From Caedibacter taeniospiralis (lineage in GTDB: Bacteria; Pseudomonadota; Gammaproteobacteria; Francisellales; Francisellaceae): a DNA stretch of 10,971 nucleotides. The DNA is taken from contig NZ_PGGB02000018.1 in assembly GCF_002803295.2 (NCBI RefSeq), positions 18,164-29,134 of the forward strand, read 5' to 3'. A program made the position numbers and the translations under genes. How positions within the stretch are numbered: position 1 is the first letter of the stretch; each line of letters opens with the position of its first letter. This document shows positions 3,632-10,971 of the stretch, piece after piece. The notes under the pieces are model-generated. The model searched no databases and was not told the DNA's origin. It worked only from the letters and a program-made list of their open reading frames with translations.

Positions 3632-3774
3632 TAATGAAATTAGTGTTTTTTTCTTCGACTAAGGAGGATGAGATAACAGTAACACAAATTTGATTTTTAG
3701 CAATTCTGTCATGGTTAACCAGAAAAAGTTCTCAAAAAAAGCATTTTTAAGTGTGTGTTTATGTGTTGCTATTT

Positions 3775-3848
3775 GGCTTTTATTTGATTTAATTATTAAA
3801 TAAATATTTATTATAATTGAATTTTATATGGACAAATAATTACAAATT
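3775..3848. promoter_or_regulatory. nearly pure A/T tract next to the tandem array; candidate DNA-unwinding element
   Basis: The sequence gcttttatttgatttaattattaaataaatatttattataattgaattttatatggacaaataattacaaatt has very few G/C and directly abuts the repeat array. No DnaA box was recognised. Confidence 0.3.
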
Positions 3849-4824
3849 GAGCCATGAGAAATGAGCCATGAGAATGAGCCATGAGCCATTAGCGGATTAG
3901 CTATTAAACCCTTAAGCCATAAGGATTTGAGCCATTACCCATTGAGCATTACCCATTGAGCATTACCCATTGAGCCATTACCCATTACCCATTAGCGGAT
4001 TAGCTATTAAACCCTTAAGCCATAAGGATTTGAGCCATTACCCATTGAGCATTACCCATTGAGCCATTACCCATTACCCATTAGCGGATTAGCTATTAAA
4101 CCCTTAAGCCATAAGGATTTGAGCCATTACCCATTGAGCATTACCCATTGAGCATTACCCATTACCCATTAGCGGATTAGCTATTAAACCCTTAAGCCAT
4201 AAGGATTTGAGCCATTACCCATTGAGCATTACCCATTGAGCCATTACCCATTGAGCCATTACCCATTACCCATTAGCGGATTAGCTATTAAACCCTTAAG
4301 CCATAAGGATTTGAGCCATTACCCATTGAGCCATTACCCATTGAGCATTACCCATTGAGCATTACCCATTGAGCCATTACCCATTGAGCATTACCCATTG
4401 AGCCATTACCCATTACCCATTAGCGGATTAGCTATTAAACCCTTAAGCCATAAGGATTTGAGCCATTACCCATTGAGCATTACCCATTGAGCCATTACCC
4501 ATTGAGCATTACCCATTGAGCATTACCCATTGAGCATTACCCATTGAGCCATTACCCATTGAGCCATTACCCATTGAGCATTACCCATTGAGCCATTACC
4601 CATTGAGCATTACCCATTGAGCATTACCCATTGAGCATTACCCATTGAGCCATTACCCATTACCCATTAGCGGATTAGCTATTAAACCCTTAAGCCATAA
4701 GGATTTGAGCCATTACCCATTGAGCATTACCCATTGAGCATTACCCATTGAGCCATTACCCATTACCCATTAGCGGATTAGCTATTAAACCCTTAAGCCA
4801 TAAGGATTTGAGCCATTACCCATT
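3849..4824. repeat. two-tier non-coding tandem array: 8 x 39-bp anchor units plus 40 x 14/15-bp short repeats (candidate iteron or centromere array)
   Basis: The anchor TAGCGGATTAGCTATTAAACCCTTAAGCCATAAGGATTT starts at 3890, 3993, 4082, 4170, 4274, 4421, 4668 and 4771. Runs of GAGC(C)ATTACCCATT follow the anchors in counts of 4, 3, 3, 4, 7, 14, 4 and 1. Every run except the last is closed by ACCCAT. A degenerate GAGCCAT lead occupies 3849-3889. No ORF is present on either strand. Confidence 0.95.
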
Positions 4825-4835
4825 GAACGAATAAA

Positions 4836-6272
4836 TTATTGAATTTCGTAATACGCGTGTCTACCTTTTCCAAACAATTTAATTTTTGTTTTTGACTTAA
4901 GTCTTTGCAGCCAAATTTTAACCATTTCTCTTGATTTGTCAGGAAATAACTCCATAGCCTCTCTAGTCGTTATTTTACCGTGCTTTTGAATATGTTTAAC
5001 AATCGCATTTTCTGCCAAATTTTCATCGTTTTTTAGTGGTTGATTTGGTTGAGTTTTTTCCTCTAAATCAGGTGTATTTTCCACTTTAATTTCATCATCT
5101 TTTTGAGCTATAATTGCTTCTGCAAATTTCTCTATTGATTGAATAGTAGCGATTTTGCCGTTTAGAAGCTCATCAAGAGACTTTTTTGTTATACTCGTAG
5201 GGTTGTATAGGATGATATCTTTTAATTCAAAGGCGAGCTTCCTAGACGCCTTTAAATCGGTGTTTAGATGATACTGTAGCGTTAATCCATTTTTTCTCCA
5301 CCATTTATTGATTATTTCAAAGTTTTCTTCTGACTGCTTCACTTGTGCTTGTTTTTCTTCATTTAATACCTCTGTATCGTTTGTATTTAAAGGCTTAAAG
5401 CCATTTTCAAGAAGTTTGCATAAATAGCCTGCAAGATTATGAATTTTACTTTTTTTGTTCTCGTTGTAAATTGTCTCAAACCCTTGTTCTATCTTGTTTT
5501 TACCATGTTTTTTAATTAATCCCATAGCGTTTTCTGATGAAAATCCCATATCCATCAATTCAGAAAAACAAAAAAAATCATCATCAAAATCAGTCACGTT
5601 TTCTGCGTAATGAGATTCGTCTGTTTGCAAAATTTCTTTGCGCGCGGTGATGATTGATCTCTTGTTTTCTTCTGTATTCTTATGTAGGGAGCTGTCTACG
5701 CCTTGCAGTGTATGGGTTTGAGAGGTGTTGACAATACACGGTTTGTCCATTTTTTTCCCCGTTTTGTCCATTTTTTTCCCCGTTTTGTCCATTTTTTTCC
5801 CCGTTTTGTCCATTTTTTTCCCCGTTTTGTCCATTTTTTTCCCCGTTTTGTCCATTTTTTTCCCCGTTTTGTCCAAAAAGCCCTGGTTTGTACAATTTTG
5901 GGTTATTTTTAGTTCTGTCTTGTTTTTTTTCTGAATGTTTCTTTTAATAGCTTCGTCAACAACCCATATTTTTCTCTGCAAAATAGAATTGTTGTTGAGA
6001 TCTTTTTTCCGATGAAGATAGCCAAAAGAGGCTAGTTTATCGATATGTCTCTTAATTGATTTTTTACACATATTAAAAAATTTCGCAAAAAAATCGTCAC
6101 TGGCGTAACAAACTCCTTCGTCATTACTCGATAGCATTTTGATTTTAGACAATAGACCAACCTGTATCAAAGACACACCTTCTAACAAAAAATATGACTT
6201 CGGAATTTTTACCATATCCTTTTCTTCATCGTTTAAAACTTGAGTTTGTTTCATGTGATAAATTTGATTCAT
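4836..6272 (-). CDS. HTH-domain replication-initiator-like protein (478 aa) with an internal DKTGKKM x6 repeat
   Basis: The ORF-track start at 6320 is a TTG. The ATG at 6272 is preceded by AAGGAG (plus-strand ctcctt 6281-6286) with 8-nt spacing. The N-terminal segment LLSKIKMLSSNDEGVCYASDDFFAKFFNMCKKSIKRHIDKLASFGYL resembles HTH_36 / phage-plasmid replication-organiser winged helices. A second HTH-like segment lies at the C-terminus (ITTREAMELFPDKSREMVKIWLQRL). The gene abuts the tandem array. The function is inferred. Confidence 0.55.
   Translation of the reverse strand: MNQIYHMKQTQVLNDEEKDMVKIPKSYFLLEGVSLIQVGLLSKIKMLSSNDEGVCYASDDFFAKFFNMCKKSIKRHIDKLASFGYLHRKKDLNNNSILQRKIWVVDEAIKRNIQKKNKTELKITQNCTNQGFLDKTGKKMDKTGKKMDKTGKKMDKTGKKMDKTGKKMDKTGKKMDKPCIVNTSQTHTLQGVDSSLHKNTEENKRSIITARKEILQTDESHYAENVTDFDDDFFCFSELMDMGFSSENAMGLIKKHGKNKIEQGFETIYNENKKSKIHNLAGYLCKLLENGFKPLNTNDTEVLNEEKQAQVKQSEENFEIINKWWRKNGLTLQYHLNTDLKASRKLAFELKDIILYNPTSITKKSLDELLNGKIATIQSIEKFAEAIIAQKDDEIKVENTPDLEEKTQPNQPLKNDENLAENAIVKHIQKHGKITTREAMELFPDKSREMVKIWLQRLKSKTKIKLFGKGRHAYYEIQ
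5739..5874 (-). repeat. 21-bp tandem repeat inside the rep-like CDS (6 perfect copies plus 1 degenerate)
   Basis: Plus-strand CCCCGTTTTGTCCATTTTTTT, with cores at 5757, 5778, 5799, 5820, 5841 and 5862. A degenerate CGGTTTGTCC lies at 5739. It encodes DKTGKKM x6. Confidence 0.95.
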
Positions 6273-6359
6273 TTTTGGGACTCCTTTTTCATGGATTGAA
6301 CAGACCACAGAAGTGAACAAAAAAGCTCTTTCACATCCTGCGATATGATAGTTATTTGA

Positions 6360-6390
6360 GATTTTTGATTTTTGATTTTTGATTTTTGAT
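6360..6390. repeat. 7-bp microsatellite GATTTTT x4.4 upstream of the rep-like gene
   Basis: Direct reading gives gattttt gattttt gattttt gattttt gat. It lies 88-118 nt upstream of the ATG at 6272 and directly abuts element copy B. Confidence 0.9.
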
Positions 6391-6503
6391 AGGGTGCCTC
6401 GGGCCTCATGATAGATTTTGTATATCCATACACAAAATCGAATCGGCTATCCTCGGCGGTATAAATTTTGCCCTCGCGTTCCGCTCTCCATGGCTCGCAG
6501 CGA
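6391..6503 (+). mobile_element. short form (113 bp) of the GC-rich repeat element, copy B
   Basis: It has the same left 82 nt and right 31 nt as the long copies. It lacks the central 179 bp, and the junction falls in a shared GCCC. Confidence 0.8.
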
Positions 6504-6516
6504 GCGATATCCCTAT

Positions 6517-6693
6517 TTAGGCATGATTATTTTCATCGGTGTGCTCAATATCTTTTTCAATAATTTGAACTTCCTTTTCAACGAATTTTGCACCTTCTTC
6601 GGCGAGTTTAATCTCAACCAGTGGACCTATCGTACATCCTCCTAGAATGATTGATAAAGATAGCACTGTCAAAACTTTTGAATATTTTTTCAC
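6517..6693 (-). CDS. small lipoprotein (58 aa: MKKYSKVLTVLSLSIILGGCTIGPLVEIKLAEEGAKFVEKEVQIIEKDIEHTDENNHA)
   Basis: Hand translation; not in the supplied ORF track. GTG start at 6693. Canonical lipoprotein signal peptide (KK n-region, hydrophobic core, lipobox L-G-G-C). TAA stop at 6519-6517. It lies antisense to the element-seeded plus-strand ORF 6418..6645. Confidence 0.55.
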   Translation of the reverse strand: MKKYSKVLTVLSLSIILGGCTIGPLVEIKLAEEGAKFVEKEVQIIEKDIEHTDENNHA

Positions 6694-6754
6694 TTTAATT
6701 TTCTTAAAAAGAAATTACATATTATATATATAAAATAAATATATTTTAATTGCA

Positions 6755-7306
6755 TTAACTTTCTAGTTCATCTTTGTTTTTTGTATCCTTAAAAAAAATT
6801 TTTGGTCTCCCTCTTGGTCGCTTTGGTTTATCTTCTATCGAAGATTTTTGTACTATTTTTTTTGGACGACCCCTTGGCTTCTTATCTAAATTATCAACGT
6901 AATCCAAGAGATTATCTGGATTAGGAATATGTGCTTCATCAGAAATCAAGGCTTTAAATTCATTTGCAAATTTAAAAAGCACTACGCGTTTCTCTCTCGG
7001 CTTTATTTTTTCCATAGTACGTGGGTTATGAGCATTTTTTCTAAAACTTACTCGTGTCTCAAAGCGCCCAAGCCCTTCAAGTAAAATAATCCGATTATTA
7101 AGCAACTGCTCACGTAAAAGATTCATTAACTCATAAAAGAAATGATTACAATCTTCTCTACTAAATTTCGTCTTGAGTGATAAATGTTTAATCAACTCAT
7201 TTCGACTCATAGATCGATTATCTTTCTTACATGGTCTTCCCCTACCCCTTTTAAGCACTTCTTGTTTGTCATTTTCTTGATTTAGTTTTTTTTCTGCGTT
7301 TATCAT
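6755..7306 (-). CDS. HU/IHF-fold DNA-binding protein with N- and C-terminal AT-hook extensions
   Basis: The core MSRNELIKHLS...LEGLGRFETRVSFRKNAHNPRTMEKIKPREKRVVLFKFANEFKALI follows the HU/IHF pattern (MNKxELI start, GxGxF, R..RNPxT.E.I.I, V.FK). AT-hook-like RGRGRPCKK sits before the core, and PRGRPKK and PRGRPK after it. The internal Met33 is an alternative start. Confidence 0.7.
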   Translation of the reverse strand: MINAEKKLNQENDKQEVLKRGRGRPCKKDNRSMSRNELIKHLSLKTKFSREDCNHFFYELMNLLREQLLNNRIILLEGLGRFETRVSFRKNAHNPRTMEKIKPREKRVVLFKFANEFKALISDEAHIPNPDNLLDYVDNLDKKPRGRPKKIVQKSSIEDKPKRPRGRPKIFFKDTKNKDELES

Positions 7307-7380
7307 TTTTTTTCATCTAACTACTGAATGATTCATCGAGCCTTATGTTGGTTATCCTCTGTCGAATAGAGCAGTATCAA

Positions 7381-8021
7381 TCACTTCCAACTCGCGATTT
7401 CAGCAATTCTCTTGTCTGAATTCAAACGATTTTTTATGGCTTCTGCTCTTTTCAACGTGTTTTCTATGTAAACATCATCAGAATTTATACACTCGCTGCG
7501 AGCCATGGAGAGCGGAACGCGAGGGCGAGTAGACCCGGGTAGCCTTGCGCTGTTGATCAGCAAGCGACGTGCCGAAGGCGCCAGAGCGAAGTCTGTGAAA
7601 CAGCTTTTACCCAAGGCGTAGAGTAGAATCGGAGGAGTGTTGTCCGTTCGGAATGAGCGTAGCGAATTTGTGAGGACATGCCGAGGAGGCGGACGGCCCG
7701 GGCAAAATTTATACCGCCGAGGATAGCCGATTCGATTTTGTGTATGGATATACAAAATCTATCATGAGGCCCGAGGCACCCTATTGAGTTTATTCTCAAA
7801 GGACACTCTGTTTGATGCACTTCTTGATAACACTCAACCATTTCCAGGGTCAGCGATCCTCTTGAGTGTTTCTCTTTTAAATATTCAATATCTGACCACC
7901 GTGCTTTACGGATGTCATCTCTGTAAAAATTCATGAAACTTCTTTTTGTTTCAAACACCCCGTAACGTTTATTGATTGCTCTAATAAAAAAATCGTCAAA
8001 AGTTATCACCATCTTATTCAC
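7381..8021 (-). pseudogene. small hypothetical gene interrupted by element copy C; the N-terminal part is fused to element-encoded residues in the 154-aa track ORF
   Basis: Native codons run from 8021 (GTG; or more likely the ATG at 8012, preceded by AGGTGA) to 7783. The element occupies 7782-7493. The downstream tail CINSDDVYIENTLKRAEAIKNRLNSDKRIAEIASWK* (7491-7381) is in frame with the upstream part once the 290 bp are removed. Confidence 0.6.
7493..7782 (-). mobile_element. GC-rich non-autonomous repeat element, long form, copy C (290 bp, inverted relative to A)
   Basis: Its reverse complement aligns end to end with 1288-1579. The first ~89 nt are identical. About a dozen substitutions and a 2-nt indel are clustered in the central segment. 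Confidence 0.8.
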
Positions 8022-8097
8022 CTAAAAATATTTTTTATGATTCAAAAACCATCTCGCCATCTTCTCTCACCAACGGAATCGTCATCTTCTTGTCTTT

Positions 8098-8445
8098 TTA
8101 TACCGCTCGAAGGTAATATGAATATTCATAACCGTCTTTGGTTAATTTCTTCTCCCACGAGCTCAAATGCTCTGGCATGAACAGCGTTTCTTTATTTTTA
8201 ACACTTTCTACAGGATACGTATACGGCTTCTTCGTGTAAAAAATTCCCGTGTACCGATAGCCAATAGGTAAACTATCTTTTTTCTTTTCAAAACAGACTA
8301 TCGCTTCGTTAAAATACGAAATCACCTTCTTAAATTTTTCTTCACCTGAATAATCAATCAACACTTTTTCTTTCTGCATAATAAGCTCAATAATACGCTT
8401 TATGTTTTGGATGTCTGTTTTTAGCTTTTGACGTTCACTACTCAT
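8098..8445 (-). CDS. hypothetical protein (115 aa), translationally coupled to the upstream gene
   Basis: The ATG at 8445 overlaps the upstream TAG (8440-8438) as ATGAGTAG. AAGGAG lies 10 nt upstream. No recognisable family. Confidence 0.6.
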   Translation of the reverse strand: MSSERQKLKTDIQNIKRIIELIMQKEKVLIDYSGEEKFKKVISYFNEAIVCFEKKKDSLPIGYRYTGIFYTKKPYTYPVESVKNKETLFMPEHLSSWEKKLTKDGYEYSYYLRAV

Positions 8446-10126
8446 TTTTTCTTATCTCCTTTTCTTTTTCACGTTGTTTTTGTTTTAAAGCTTCAATGGA
8501 TTTTTGAGCTTCGATGTGGCTTGTTGCCTGTTGTTCTTGACAGCTATAACCATCAACCAAAGCCCAATGCCGTTTTTTAAATGTTCCGATAAAGACATGC
8601 TTAGGATTATTAATCGCTTTTTCATCCCACCTTTTACTTATATCTTCCCATTGATAAGTCATTTGATGTTCAAAATGCCTTAAGAAAATTTGCAGTTGAA
8701 GTGGGTTCATTTCTATGTTATTTTCTTCAGCGTTAATTTTGATTTTATTGATGTCCGATGAATAGAAGGGTGCTTTCCCCATGCTTTTCAATAGGTCGTT
8801 GATTTTGGTAAGGTCGATGGTTTCGTAAGTAAGGTCAAGATTAACATCGCTTAGATTGACATGACTTAAAGTCAGAGAGTCTGTTTTGTTTAATTCATCT
8901 CTAGTGGTTTCGTTTGTTTTAGTTGCTTCTGAGTTATTTAAAGTAATTTTTCTTAAATCATGATTTTCTTTAACGAGCAGTTCGTATTGCTCTTTTATAA
9001 ATTCCAATTCTTCTGTTAATTTTTCAACGTCATTAGATTGACTATATTTAGAACTGTCTGTTTTTTCATCTTGTCCCATATTACATAACATACTATGCTC
9101 TTCTATTTTATCTATATTATAAATATGGGAGTCGCTTTCATTTTTTTGTGGTGTGTTTTTTTCAAAGTCACCTTGTGTACTTTGTAGGCTTTTTACGTAC
9201 TCAAAAACGTCTGGTCTGATCTGATATTTTACCCATCCATTTCGACCTGTTTTACGCTCGTAAACTGAAATGTAGTTCTTCTTTTTGAGGCGGTAAATTG
9301 CTTTTTTTACAATGTCTTTATTAGATTTTATCTGCTTAATTATATTGTTAGTGTTGATATGACATGTGATTAGTAAACATAAATTTTCTAAGCTAGAAAT
9401 CATAATTCTTATAACTATAAATTGACACCCGTTCAGTTGGATTTTATTTCCTGTTTCTTGAGACATGTCCTCCGTTTTGTCCCCTATTTCTTGAGACATG
9501 TCCTCCGTTTTGTCCCCTGTTTCTTGAGACATGTCCCCCGTTTTGTCCCCTATTTCTTGAGACATGTCCTCCGTTTTGTCCCCTGTTTCTTGAGACATGT
9601 CCTCCGTTTTGTCCCCTGTTTCTTGAGACATGTCCCCCGTTTTGTCCCCTGTTTCTTGAGACATGTCCTCCGTTTTGTCCCCTGTTTCTTGAGACATGTC
9701 CCCTGTTTTGTCCCCTGTTTCTTGAGACATGTCCCCTGTTTTGTCCCCTGTTTCTTGAGACATGTCCCCCGTTTTGTCCCCTGTTTCTTGAGACATGTCC
9801 CCTGTTTTGTCCCCTGTTTCTTGAGACATGTCCCCTGTTTCTTGAGACATGTCCCCCGTTTTGTCCCCTGTTTCTTGAGACATGTCCCCCGTTTTGTCCC
9901 CTATTTCTTGAGACATGTCCTCCGTTTTGTCCCCTGTTTCTTGAGACATGTCCCCCGTTTTGTCCCCTGTTTCTTGAGACATGTCCCCCGTTTTGTCCCC
10001 TGTTTCTTGAGACATGTCCTCCGTTTTACCGTGGTTATTTATAAATGGGTTATCCCATGGTCGATATTTTTTAGGAATATATTCTTTTTTAGACACTAAA
10101 ATAGTGATGTTTTCAATTTTAGGCAT
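8438..10126 (-). CDS. repeat-containing winged-helix protein in the ParB position (562 aa); candidate centromere-binding or Rep-like protein
   Basis: The ATG at 10126 lies 1 nt after the parA stop codon (TAAAATG). Residues 37-230 are 18 tandem DMSQETGDKTG/E units. An HTH-like segment follows (IKQIKSNKDIVKKAIYRLKKKNYISVYERKTGRNGWVKYQI). No ParB/Spo0J motifs were recognised. Confidence 0.7.
   Translation of the reverse strand: MPKIENITILVSKKEYIPKKYRPWDNPFINNHGKTEDMSQETGDKTGDMSQETGDKTGDMSQETGDKTEDMSQEIGDKTGDMSQETGDKTGDMSQETGDMSQETGDKTGDMSQETGDKTGDMSQETGDKTGDMSQETGDKTGDMSQETGDKTEDMSQETGDKTGDMSQETGDKTEDMSQETGDKTEDMSQEIGDKTGDMSQETGDKTEDMSQEIGDKTEDMSQETGNKIQLNGCQFIVIRIMISSLENLCLLITCHINTNNIIKQIKSNKDIVKKAIYRLKKKNYISVYERKTGRNGWVKYQIRPDVFEYVKSLQSTQGDFEKNTPQKNESDSHIYNIDKIEEHSMLCNMGQDEKTDSSKYSQSNDVEKLTEELEFIKEQYELLVKENHDLRKITLNNSEATKTNETTRDELNKTDSLTLSHVNLSDVNLDLTYETIDLTKINDLLKSMGKAPFYSSDINKIKINAEENNIEMNPLQLQIFLRHFEHQMTYQWEDISKRWDEKAINNPKHVFIGTFKKRHWALVDGYSCQEQQATSHIEAQKSIEALKQKQREKEKEIRKNE
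9437..10027 (-). repeat. 33-bp tandem repeat inside the CDS (16 full units, one 21-bp unit, one degenerate terminal unit)
   Basis: GAGACATG recurs at 9460, 9493, 9526 and onward with a 33-nt period, with a single 21-nt step (9823 to 9844). The plus-strand unit is CCCCTGTTTCTTGAGACATGTCC[C/T]CCGTTTTGT. Confidence 0.95.
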
Positions 10127-10127
10127 T

Positions 10128-10971
10128 TTAAATTCCCAATATTTCGGATGTTAATAAACTAAAATCTTCTTTTTCTGGAGTTTTTTTAAAACTATCAAAG
10201 ACTGATATAGACGCTGCTATACAGTTCTCTATAGATTGAAGCGACCTTATATAGCTTCTTAATAAAATTGAGTTGCACTGTTTATTTTTTAATACATATT
10301 TCATTACTTCATGCGATAGATTTGTTCTTGAATCAAATTTATTAAACAATATCTTCAAAACTATATCTTTATCATATTTTTCACATAAATTTAAAATTTC
10401 ATGATGAGTTAATTCAAGACCAGCTAAAGCATAATCAGTTGGAGTGATAGGCATTATTATTTCATCTGATGCAAGTGTAGCAGCAGATACTGCTGACCCT
10501 ATAGATGGTGGACAGTCAATAACAATAATATCATATTTGTTTTTTAATTCTGAAAAAGGTTTATTAAAAACCTTATCTAATGGATGCTTACCAAGCATTA
10601 AAGAGTTATCAAGTAAGGCATTATCTACCCTGCTTGGTATAAAATCTAAACCATCAAATATATTTATAAGTAAATCACTTATCTCTAATTTGTCATTTAT
10701 ATAATCAATAAGAACAGGTTTTTTTCTGGCATCAACCCCCAATGTTCTTGTAAGATTTGCTTGTTGGTCTAATTCAATAAGAGCCACTTTAGCACCTAAG
10801 ATGGCAGCTCTAATCGCAAAATTTAATGATATAACTGTTTTACCAACCCCTCCTTTAACTAATTGGAATGAATATATCTTATTGGGGAATTTATAATTAA
10901 AAAGTTTTTTTGCAGTGTTATGAGAAAAATATACTCTTCTACCAAAATTTTTAGTTTGAAGCCCGCTGTTC
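10128..10971 (-). CDS. parA: ParA/Soj-family partition ATPase, 5' end beyond the window edge
   Basis: The track ORF starts at a GTG (10787), but the frame stays open to 10971 by hand translation: ...NSGLQTKNFGRRVYFSHNTAKKLFNYKFPNKIYSFQLVKGGVGKTVISLNFAIRAAILGAKVALIELD. Deviant Walker A KGGVGKT is encoded at about 10842-10862. Walker B-like IIVIDCPP is present. Confidence 0.9.
   Translation of the reverse strand, partial: NSGLQTKNFGRRVYFSHNTAKKLFNYKFPNKIYSFQLVKGGVGKTVISLNFAIRAAILGAKVALIELDQQANLTRTLGVDARKKPVLIDYINDKLEISDLLINIFDGLDFIPSRVDNALLDNSLMLGKHPLDKVFNKPFSELKNKYDIIVIDCPPSIGSAVSAATLASDEIIMPITPTDYALAGLELTHHEILNLCEKYDKDIVLKILFNKFDSRTNLSHEVMKYVLKNKQCNSILLRSYIRSLQSIENCIAASISVFDSFKKTPEKEDFSLLTSEILGI

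Follow-up and report, generated by a model that had tools for sequence, protein, structure and literature searches.

The window analysed here, a 10,971-nt stretch of Caedibacter taeniospiralis DNA, contains on its minus strand a rep-like gene, a gene for an HU/IHF-like DNA-bending protein, a gene for a putative centromere-binding protein (CBP) and a ParA-family ATPase gene (Table 1). The rep-like gene and the CBP gene each enclose a tandem array within the open reading frame (ORF), with units of 21 and 33 bp, and the two arrays have a 13-nt core in common. We describe this core, the protein family to which the CBP belongs, and the possible roles of the two arrays in replication and partition.

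The window is 99.9% identical to C. taeniospiralis plasmid pKAP298 (NC_005915.1, 21742-36592), apart from an extra ~293-bp repeated element at 1287-1579. It is probably pKAP51, the 41.65-kb R-body plasmid of strain 51 (PMC7297999). The pKAP298 record, which dates from 2004, contains Ns and single-base indels at 30590 and 35676, matching window positions 4969 and 10054. They shorten rep to 436 aa (478 aa in the window), so that its C-terminal winged helix is lost, and disrupt the 562-aa ORF; this is probably why the record does not list the CBP gene. The window carries both genes intact. Copy number and variants of both arrays are the same in pKAP51 and pKAP298.

Table 1. Positions of the arrays, genes and gene parts in the window (TRF, Tandem Repeats Finder; AF2, AlphaFold 2; oriV, origin of vegetative replication; K/R, lysine/arginine).
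Feature	Position	Strand	Basis or remark
In-ORF 33-bp array of the CBP gene, proposed centromere	9450..10027	-	TRF, box search, sequence, family analogy
CBP gene, 562 aa, ParA partner, putative centromere-binding protein	8438..10126	-	ORF, alignments, AF2 model
CBP, N-terminal K/R-rich peptide	10028-10126
CBP, repeat linker
CBP, winged helix	~9218-9430		~aa 225-345
CBP, C-terminal domain
In-ORF 21-bp array of rep	5742..5875	-	TRF, sequence; 6.4 copies, 100% matches
rep-like gene, 478 aa	4836..6272	-	Pfam HTH_36 6e-8, PHROGs, homologues
rep, N-terminal HTH_36/lambda-O-like winged helix	~6015-6137
rep, repeat linker
rep, central conserved region
rep, C-terminal winged helix	~4839-4985
ParA-family Walker ATPase gene	10128..10971	-	5' end ~80 nt past the window; RefSeq 924 nt
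14/15-bp repeat field, candidate oriV iteron field	3848..4826	-	TRF, sequence; two homologues alike
HU/IHF-like DNA-bending protein gene, RGRP (AT-hook-like) tails at both ends	6755..7306	-	Bac_DNA_binding 1e-15, HU-HIG

Two in-gene arrays share a 13-nt core

The 13-mer GGACAAAACGGGG (plus strand, CCCCGTTTTGTCC) occurs in six exact copies in the 21-bp array of the rep-like gene (5757-5874) and in seven exact copies in the 33-bp array of the CBP gene (9536-9998). Nine further copies in the 33-bp array carry one mismatch (six read CTCC..., three CCCT...), giving 16 cores between 9470 and 9998, and all 16 keep GTTTTGTCCCC. Each array is contained in a minus-strand ORF, where the core is read as D-K-T-G, in the identical frame in both genes. 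A preliminary description of this DNA had reported the shared core, on matching strand and in matching frame, with these copy counts, and our search and the ORFs bear this out. The range that it gave for the copies in the CBP gene, 9437-10027, begins too early: the copy number is right, the first core lies at 9470, and exact copies start at 9536. The helical phasing suggested there also holds, the two periods corresponding to 2.0 turns (21 bp) and 3.1 turns (33 bp).

On the complete 49-kb pKAP298, a search for the core at up to two mismatches returns the two arrays and one chance-level match. Dinucleotide-preserving shuffles yield 0.01 expected matches for the 13-mer, and the analytic expectation for any 13-mer common to a 21-bp and a 33-bp unit at this base composition is ~5e-5, in agreement with the earlier judgement that a chance match is very unlikely.

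One explanation places the cause in the proteins: both arrays would be selected only as flexible, charged, disordered linkers in which D-K-T-G is favoured, and the identity of the DNA would be incidental. Both are indeed in frame, uninterrupted, low in complexity and hydrophilic, and one frame is used in both genes. A shared frame, however, has a prior of 1 in 3, and the core is free of stop codons in every frame. The spelling of the core is also improbable on this account. Given DKTG, the codons GAC-AAA-ACG-GGG have P = 0.004 under plasmid codon usage; the plasmid has a GC content of 37%, and GAC, ACG and GGG are rare codons that make up 25%, 20% and 11% of their synonymous sets. The core identity is therefore not a by-product of the peptide and codon bias; it is a fact at the level of DNA.

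The 33-bp unit is a pair of 12-bp boxes

The 33-bp array comprises ~17 units (92-96% matches by TRF) that translate as GDKTGDMSQET. Each unit consists of two abutting 12-bp boxes, AAACAGGGGACA and then AAAC[G/A]G[G/A]GGACA, followed by the 9-bp spacer TGTCTCAAG (12+12+9), an anatomy absent from the preliminary description. A box search finds ~33 head-to-tail copies of the 12-bp box AAAC[A/G]GGGGACA in the array. The 13-mer is the junction between the two boxes, GGACA joined to AAACGGGG. One unit is without its second box (12 nt are missing), which creates a local period of 21 bp.

A perfect 8-bp palindrome, GACATGTC, recurs once per 33-bp unit at the box-spacer junction (18 copies, 9450-10027). 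It is missing from an array of like layout in Candidatus Bandiella woodruffii, described below, and could be a second type of site for another protein.

The ParA partner belongs to a family of winged-helix proteins

The ATPase gene matches Pfam AAA_31 at 1e-23 and the NCBIfam ParA partition family. The CBP gene lies directly behind it and is translationally coupled to it, its start (10126) being 2 nt past the parA stop (10128); homologues in four other loci (L003, L004, L005 and L015 of our locus set) occupy the same position. Searches of Pfam and NCBIfam leave the CBP unassigned, with no ParB match at E <= 0.01, and it does not classify with the ParB/Spo0J (type Ia) proteins, which combine a ParBc CTPase with a helix-turn-helix (HTH).

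A word-indexed search with the repeat-free CBP returned only the query's own record, and the relatives were reached by alignment-based search. Using CBP residues 231-339 in tblastn, we found homologues right behind parA on plasmids of Piscirickettsia salmonis, Candidatus Bandiella woodruffii and Legionella antarctica. Each of these genes has a tandem array in its 5' part, with a unit that differs from one to the next. A profile of the conserved domain collects 50 proteins, mostly from Legionella, and 24 genome loci, which include Legionella, Tatlockia, Piscirickettsia and metagenome-assembled genomes of Bacteriovoracaceae and Verrucomicrobia; it recovers the CBP itself at E = 4e-123 and relatives at 1e-26 to 1e-9. 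Members of the family begin with a short K/R-rich segment (MAIKKGAF... or MP.I...), continue with a repeat linker and have a winged helix whose wing reads GRGGWVKY. The Bandiella homologue has the C-terminal domain of the CBP as well.

The AF2 model of the pKAP CBP domain is a winged helix-turn-helix (mean pLDDT, the predicted local distance difference test score, 74; core mostly >80), and alignments, profile and model together indicate a conserved winged-helix domain with the wing motif K-x-G-R-[GN]-G-W-[VS]-x-Y in this protein. Its structural neighbours in the PDB are MarR/PadR regulators together with the centromere binders TubR and AspA. We found no description of the family in the searchable literature, and these putative winged-helix centromere-binding proteins are apparently undescribed so far.

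A 115-aa ORF at 8098-8445 has an 8-nt overlap with the CBP stop codon, and the par operon may include it as a third gene. It matches no family in Pfam, NCBIfam or PHROGs.

In-gene boxes recur across the family in three reading frames

We scripted the box test over all CBP-family loci, allowing one mismatch to a 9-mer. At least 15 loci have a 9-mer that recurs 5-28 times within the ORF, and every copy is on the coding strand. Across 16 loci the boxes form a shared consensus class, ...ACAAAC-GG-NN-(C)ACA, at a spacing of 11-12 bp. The lineages differ in detail: the box is AAACGGTTCACA in Legionella, AAACGGAACACA in Piscirickettsia, AAACAGGTAACA in locus L029, GA[G/A]TCAGGTACA in Bandiella and AAAC[A/G]GGGGACA in Caedibacter, where it fits the family class and likewise lies inside the gene. 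Bandiella also has the 12+12+9 layout of the Caedibacter 33-bp unit, built from its own box.

Where the spacing is 11 bp, box copies fall in all three frames: 6/5/8 in Piscirickettsia, 8/10/10 in L020 and 3/3/3 in L019. Identical DNA therefore gives different peptides; three copies of AAACGGAACAC in Piscirickettsia, for example, translate as N-G-T-Q-T-E-H-K-R-N-T. Piscirickettsia and the Legionella-type loci have another 9-17 copies in unchanged orientation, often as 11-bp-spaced pairs, 1.2-1.7 kb upstream of the CBP start, in non-coding DNA upstream of parA. In L. antarctica and Piscirickettsia, the two for which RefSeq annotation was consulted, it shows these clusters to be non-coding. In the former, on plasmid pTUM19329-1, the box GGTTCACAA is present in both the upstream and the in-gene cluster.

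Boxes that occupy three frames, encode different peptides and have non-coding copies are hard to reconcile with selection for the linker peptide alone, and together with the rare codons of the core they make that explanation very improbable. The preliminary description had proposed a cis-acting site embedded in a tolerant coding linker. For the CBP gene this is well supported by the number of loci, the three frames and the non-coding copies. By sequence and analogy, the 33-bp array is very probably a centromere or operator array inside the coding sequence of the protein that would bind it.

A box cluster upstream of parA is absent from pKAP298, and also from Bandiella and L015. The only other box-like cluster on pKAP is the array in rep. 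Extra box matches in L015 lie inside an IS256-like transposase gene, and we dismissed them as chance.

The rep-like gene carries its array in the linker of a lambda-O-like protein

The N-terminus of the rep-like protein has an O-like winged helix. It matches phrog_270 (3e-11), phrog_391, 'replication initiation O-like' (2e-7), phrog_8540 and phrog_678, and the PHROG name 'replication initiation protein' is also among its matches. HTH_36 is the only significant Pfam hit, with no significant match to Phage_rep_O or RepA_N, and Pfam detects no Rep_3 protein (Rep3_N/Rep3_C) in the window, which does not class it with Rep_3 iteron plasmids. A word-indexed search with the full protein gave only the query's own record among 8000 candidates, a number that we put down to words from the repeats, and an alignment search for the rep family in genome and metagenome contigs found nothing. 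In an exhaustive HMMER search with the full-length protein the repeat region (aa 132-177) dominated, leaving only ~6 true homologues (P0065, P0146, P0095, P0062, P0092 and P0170; 20-25% identity). They share the N-terminal winged helix and the central region, and the C-terminal winged helix is present in four of the seven aligned sequences.

The rep unit ATGGACAAAACGGGGAAAAAA (also AAACGGGGAAAAAAATGGACA) encodes MDKTGKK, and the array covers aa 134-177 of 478, right after the N-terminal domain, so that the initiator gene has its tandem repeats where it codes for the linker. In every unit, roughly one helical turn separates an A4 tract from an A7 tract. The unit contains the box junction GGACA plus AAACGGGG and a 10/12 match to the full box (AAACGGGGAAAA). 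At the aligned linker position, 21-bp arrays with differing units are present in four of the five homologue loci that we read: GTTTAAAAATTAAACCAAAAA in L011 and L012, with a 6-7-bp dyad; AACTGTCCAAAAATCTGGAAC in L014, with the dyad TCCA/TGGA; and AAACGCCCAAAAAATGGGTAC in L016, with the dyad CCCA-A5-TGGG. By our estimate the 4-bp dyads of L014 and L016 are each within chance expectation, and only the L011/L012 dyad stands out.

Unlike the units of all four relatives, the pKAP unit has no inverted repeat. It matches the L016 unit at 13 of 21 positions in one register, the first half being in another frame, and in place of the GTCCA of L014, which would be complementary to the right arm TGGAC of pKAP, it has GGGG. 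The pKAP array therefore resembles one typical of the family in which the left half of the unit has turned box-like. For this gene the idea of a cis-acting site in a tolerant linker is moderately supported, by the 21-bp arrays in the homologues and by the lambda-O-like domain. We lean, if only somewhat, towards reading the 21-bp array as an iteron-type element in the linker-coding part of a lambda-O-like initiator gene.

A repeat field follows rep

Beginning 10 bp past the rep stop, ~60 copies of CAATGGGTAATG(G)CT (minus strand) form a 14/15-bp repeat field in which a 44-bp spacer recurs between the copies; AT-rich DNA (3640-3860) comes next. Similar fields begin 7 bp past the stop of the rep homologues in L011 (4691-4763, five copies of TTTCAATGGTCACC) and L012 (8726-8755, at least 3.8 copies of TTCACTGG), and TCA(A/C)TGG is common to all three. 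AT-rich DNA follows the field in L011 too; the L012 contig ends inside the array. The field is a candidate for the oriV iteron field, or for the target of the Rep C-terminal winged helix, and is possibly part of the same replication module as rep. We rejected GC skew as a locator of the origin, since its minimum (~36-37 kb) coincides with a gene-strand switch and is confounded by it. The L012 contig, which carries homologue P0146, also encodes a classical Rep_3 initiator (64-1335), so the HTH_36 protein need not be the sole initiator there.

The HU/IHF-like protein may be an accessory factor for bending the origin or the centromere. An HU-HIG gene is also found near the rep homologue in L014 (6151-6483) and L016 (2256-2573); the three loci are otherwise unrelated.

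Could one box serve both genes?

Taken as a whole, the data seem to us best explained if the shared 13-mer is the DNA-level sequence of the box class bound by the CBP winged helix, an account to which we would give a little under an even chance. In this model, the 33-bp array would be the plasmid centromere, written into the coding sequence of the disordered linker of the CBP. The C-terminal winged helix of the CBP would bind the boxes, and its N-terminal K/R-rich peptide would engage ParA. The 21-bp array would be an iteron-type element whose phased A-tracts should bend DNA. The partition protein would also bind the rep array, as six phased near-cognate sites, and this array would be the counterpart of the second box cluster kept upstream of parA in the Legionella and Piscirickettsia relatives. 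On the rep array, the CBP would tie the origin or the expression of rep to the partition complex. The junction ACAAAC-GG, the most conserved part of the family box class, favours a functional link. That one motif is functionally wired into both genes is plausible but speculative, a possibility that we entertain with some doubt.

Several observations weigh against a box that works in both genes. The rep unit has no complete 12-bp box: AAACGGGGAAAA has two mismatches, and box matches of that quality arise by chance ~4 times per 49 kb. Its six copies, 100% identical and without a dyad, fit recent remodelling or conversion as well as they fit selection. The lengths 12, 21 and 33 are all divisible by 3, which keeps every box in the window in a single frame, and so it is the relatives that supply the frame test. 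The closest subfamily, Bandiella and L015, has no second box cluster anywhere. Sharing of the box is confined to pKAP51 and pKAP298, two near-identical plasmids; tblastn of all rep-family proteins against every fetched locus found the CBP and rep families together nowhere outside pKAP. Finally, the true iterons may be those of the conserved repeat field just past rep, in which case the in-ORF array would have no evident role.

Some of these points lead to a different history, in which the arrays are separate cis elements with different binders and the 13-mer is a functionless product of microhomology-mediated template switching or gene conversion at a shared GGACA, followed by expansion. The homologous rep units are of the type ...GTCCA-A-tract-TGGA(C), of which pKAP keeps TGGAC, with GGGG for the left arm and no inverted repeat. 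The six copies are identical and so recent, as expected if they expanded from one unit, although the array and its copy number are unchanged between pKAP51 and pKAP298 (a weak point, the plasmids being near-identical overall). In the CBP array the 13-mer is a natural two-box junction, a layout that Bandiella has too, and sharing is known from one plasmid lineage only. A tract of 13 nt is, however, very short for conversion, and the unit flanks are wholly different on both sides of the core. The L016 rep array, moreover, already has ACAAACG at the matching place, so part of the core predates any transfer. We consider such a relic rather unlikely, yet a serious rival to a functional link.

Plasmids P1 and F use extra iterons, incA and incC, for copy-number control. 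By analogy, the 13-mer could be the iteron core of the initiator, recognised by its N-terminal O-like domain or its C-terminal winged helix, and the 16 copies in the partition gene would titrate or handcuff Rep. The position of the rep array is exactly that of the binding sites which O-like and RepA_N initiators have for themselves (PMC5703833). The best hhalign alignment of the CBP winged helix is with the C-terminal winged helix of Rep (probability 45%, E = 2e-4), so related specificities are possible, although the match is weak and generic for winged helices. The distribution of the boxes points the other way: the box class of the 33-bp array tracks the CBP family, its members occurring in CBP genes on replicons where no homologue of this rep was found in the ~10-kb flanks fetched, and the in-ORF units of the rep homologues are quite different. 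A box that belongs to Rep is thus improbable in our estimation.

Direct homology between rep and the CBP was considered and rejected, since BLASTP aligns only the repeats and the hhalign match is of the weak, generic kind just described. Exact-pattern scans of viral contigs gave no match to either array. We also set aside 31 metagenome loci with a tandem core, which have no ParA, CBP, rep or HU relatives and adjoin integrases, hipA and eukaryotic genes. In these unrelated contigs (L041-L071), head-to-tail clusters of CGGGGACA(N3-4) have an 11-bp spacing. L042 has five copies of the CGGGGACA type some 160 bp downstream from a tyrosine integrase that contains an arm-binding domain, and in the L041 group such a cluster lies between aspartokinase and hipA.

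A mobile element in the window

A MITE-like repeat of ~295 bp (MITE, miniature inverted-repeat transposable element) is found at 1287-1579 and 7489-7794, with a partial copy near 6418-6480. The site of the first copy is empty in pKAP298, which has at least four other copies (21-kb stretch compared), suggesting from the sequence that the element was recently mobile between the two plasmid isolates. An Rfam scan of the window, this element included, gave zero matches.

Relation to known replication and partition systems

In phage lambda, the origin repeats (ori-lambda) lie within the initiator gene O, and the lambda iterons have dyad symmetry. In plasmid pSK41, four Rep boxes in the middle of rep are the target of the N-terminal domain of Rep, and the segment encoded by ori serves as a linker in the protein (PMC5703833). 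Like lambda O and pSK41 Rep, pKAP rep encodes an N-terminal winged helix followed by linker-coding tandem repeats with a period of about two turns and A-tracts. It differs from the lambda iterons in that its unit is a direct repeat without dyad symmetry, and from both systems in having a much larger second repeat field just downstream of rep; for the pKAP repeats, an origin function is putative.

The centromeres R1 parC, pBtoxis tubC and R388 stbS are head-to-tail short direct repeats bound by small centromere-binding proteins, of which TubR is a winged helix. The boxes of the CBP family, in same-orientation arrays with 11-12-bp repeats, resemble these sites of ParR, TubR and StbA and those of AspA from pNOB8. 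The modelled fold of the CBP likewise resembles TubR and AspA, with no sequence similarity. The Legionella and Piscirickettsia clusters flank the ATPase gene in a manner reminiscent of split centromeres such as R1 parC (PMC2241845). Unlike the ParM and TubZ systems, the one described here has as its motor a Walker ParA that is extended at the N-terminus, and the boxes are translated inside the ORF of the binder.

In Bacillus subtilis, parS is also found inside spo0J. In SCP2, parS lies inside parT and can be mutated synonymously (PMC12260392). The proposed pKAP centromere is similar in being placed within the gene of its own binder. SCP2 and spo0J, however, have single inverted-repeat sites for ParB-fold proteins, whereas pKAP has dozens of translated direct-repeat boxes and a winged-helix protein. 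In-gene iterons and in-gene parS are thus both known, and the 'unusual architecture' of the preliminary description was an overstatement for each array alone (PMC5703833, PMC12260392). Each ingredient of the system has precedents.

The same is true of contacts between partition and replication. ParB2 of Vibrio cholerae binds an origin 39-mer directly, and the plasmid-prophage N15 has dispersed centromere sites. A partition protein acts on the replication control of V. cholerae chromosome II and so couples replication to segregation (PMC3688505). The proposed contact of the CBP in the replication module is like that of ParB2, with the difference that it is putative and lies within the coding sequence of the initiator. 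Like N15, pKAP is a phage-derived plasmid (PMC7297999).

With considerable reservation, we put forward a broader interpretation that may well prove wrong: that these plasmids represent a widespread, undescribed ParA class of intracellular and predatory bacteria, found in Legionella, Piscirickettsia, Caedibacter, Midichloriaceae and Bacteriovoracaceae, in which the centromere is written into the linker code of the CBP, selection acts on the DNA boxes and the peptide is a by-product; in Caedibacter the box would also be present in rep, as one code for partition and replication. Beyond the question of the shared core, the most valuable outcome of the follow-up is the proposed in-gene centromere that recurs across the family. 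Boxes in three frames together with non-coding copies are a signature of dual coding that can be read from sequence alone, and if the boxes are real binding sites they would be a clear case of it, with selection on DNA dictating a translated disordered linker. The interpretation, if true, would define the centromere and the CBP for many plasmids of Legionella, Piscirickettsia and endosymbionts, on which the partner is now annotated as 'hypothetical' or 'partial'. Should the box shared with rep be functional, it would give a compact coupling of replication and segregation by one recognition code. For Caedibacter, such a system would help explain how an obligate endosymbiont keeps the R-body plasmid that confers its killer trait.

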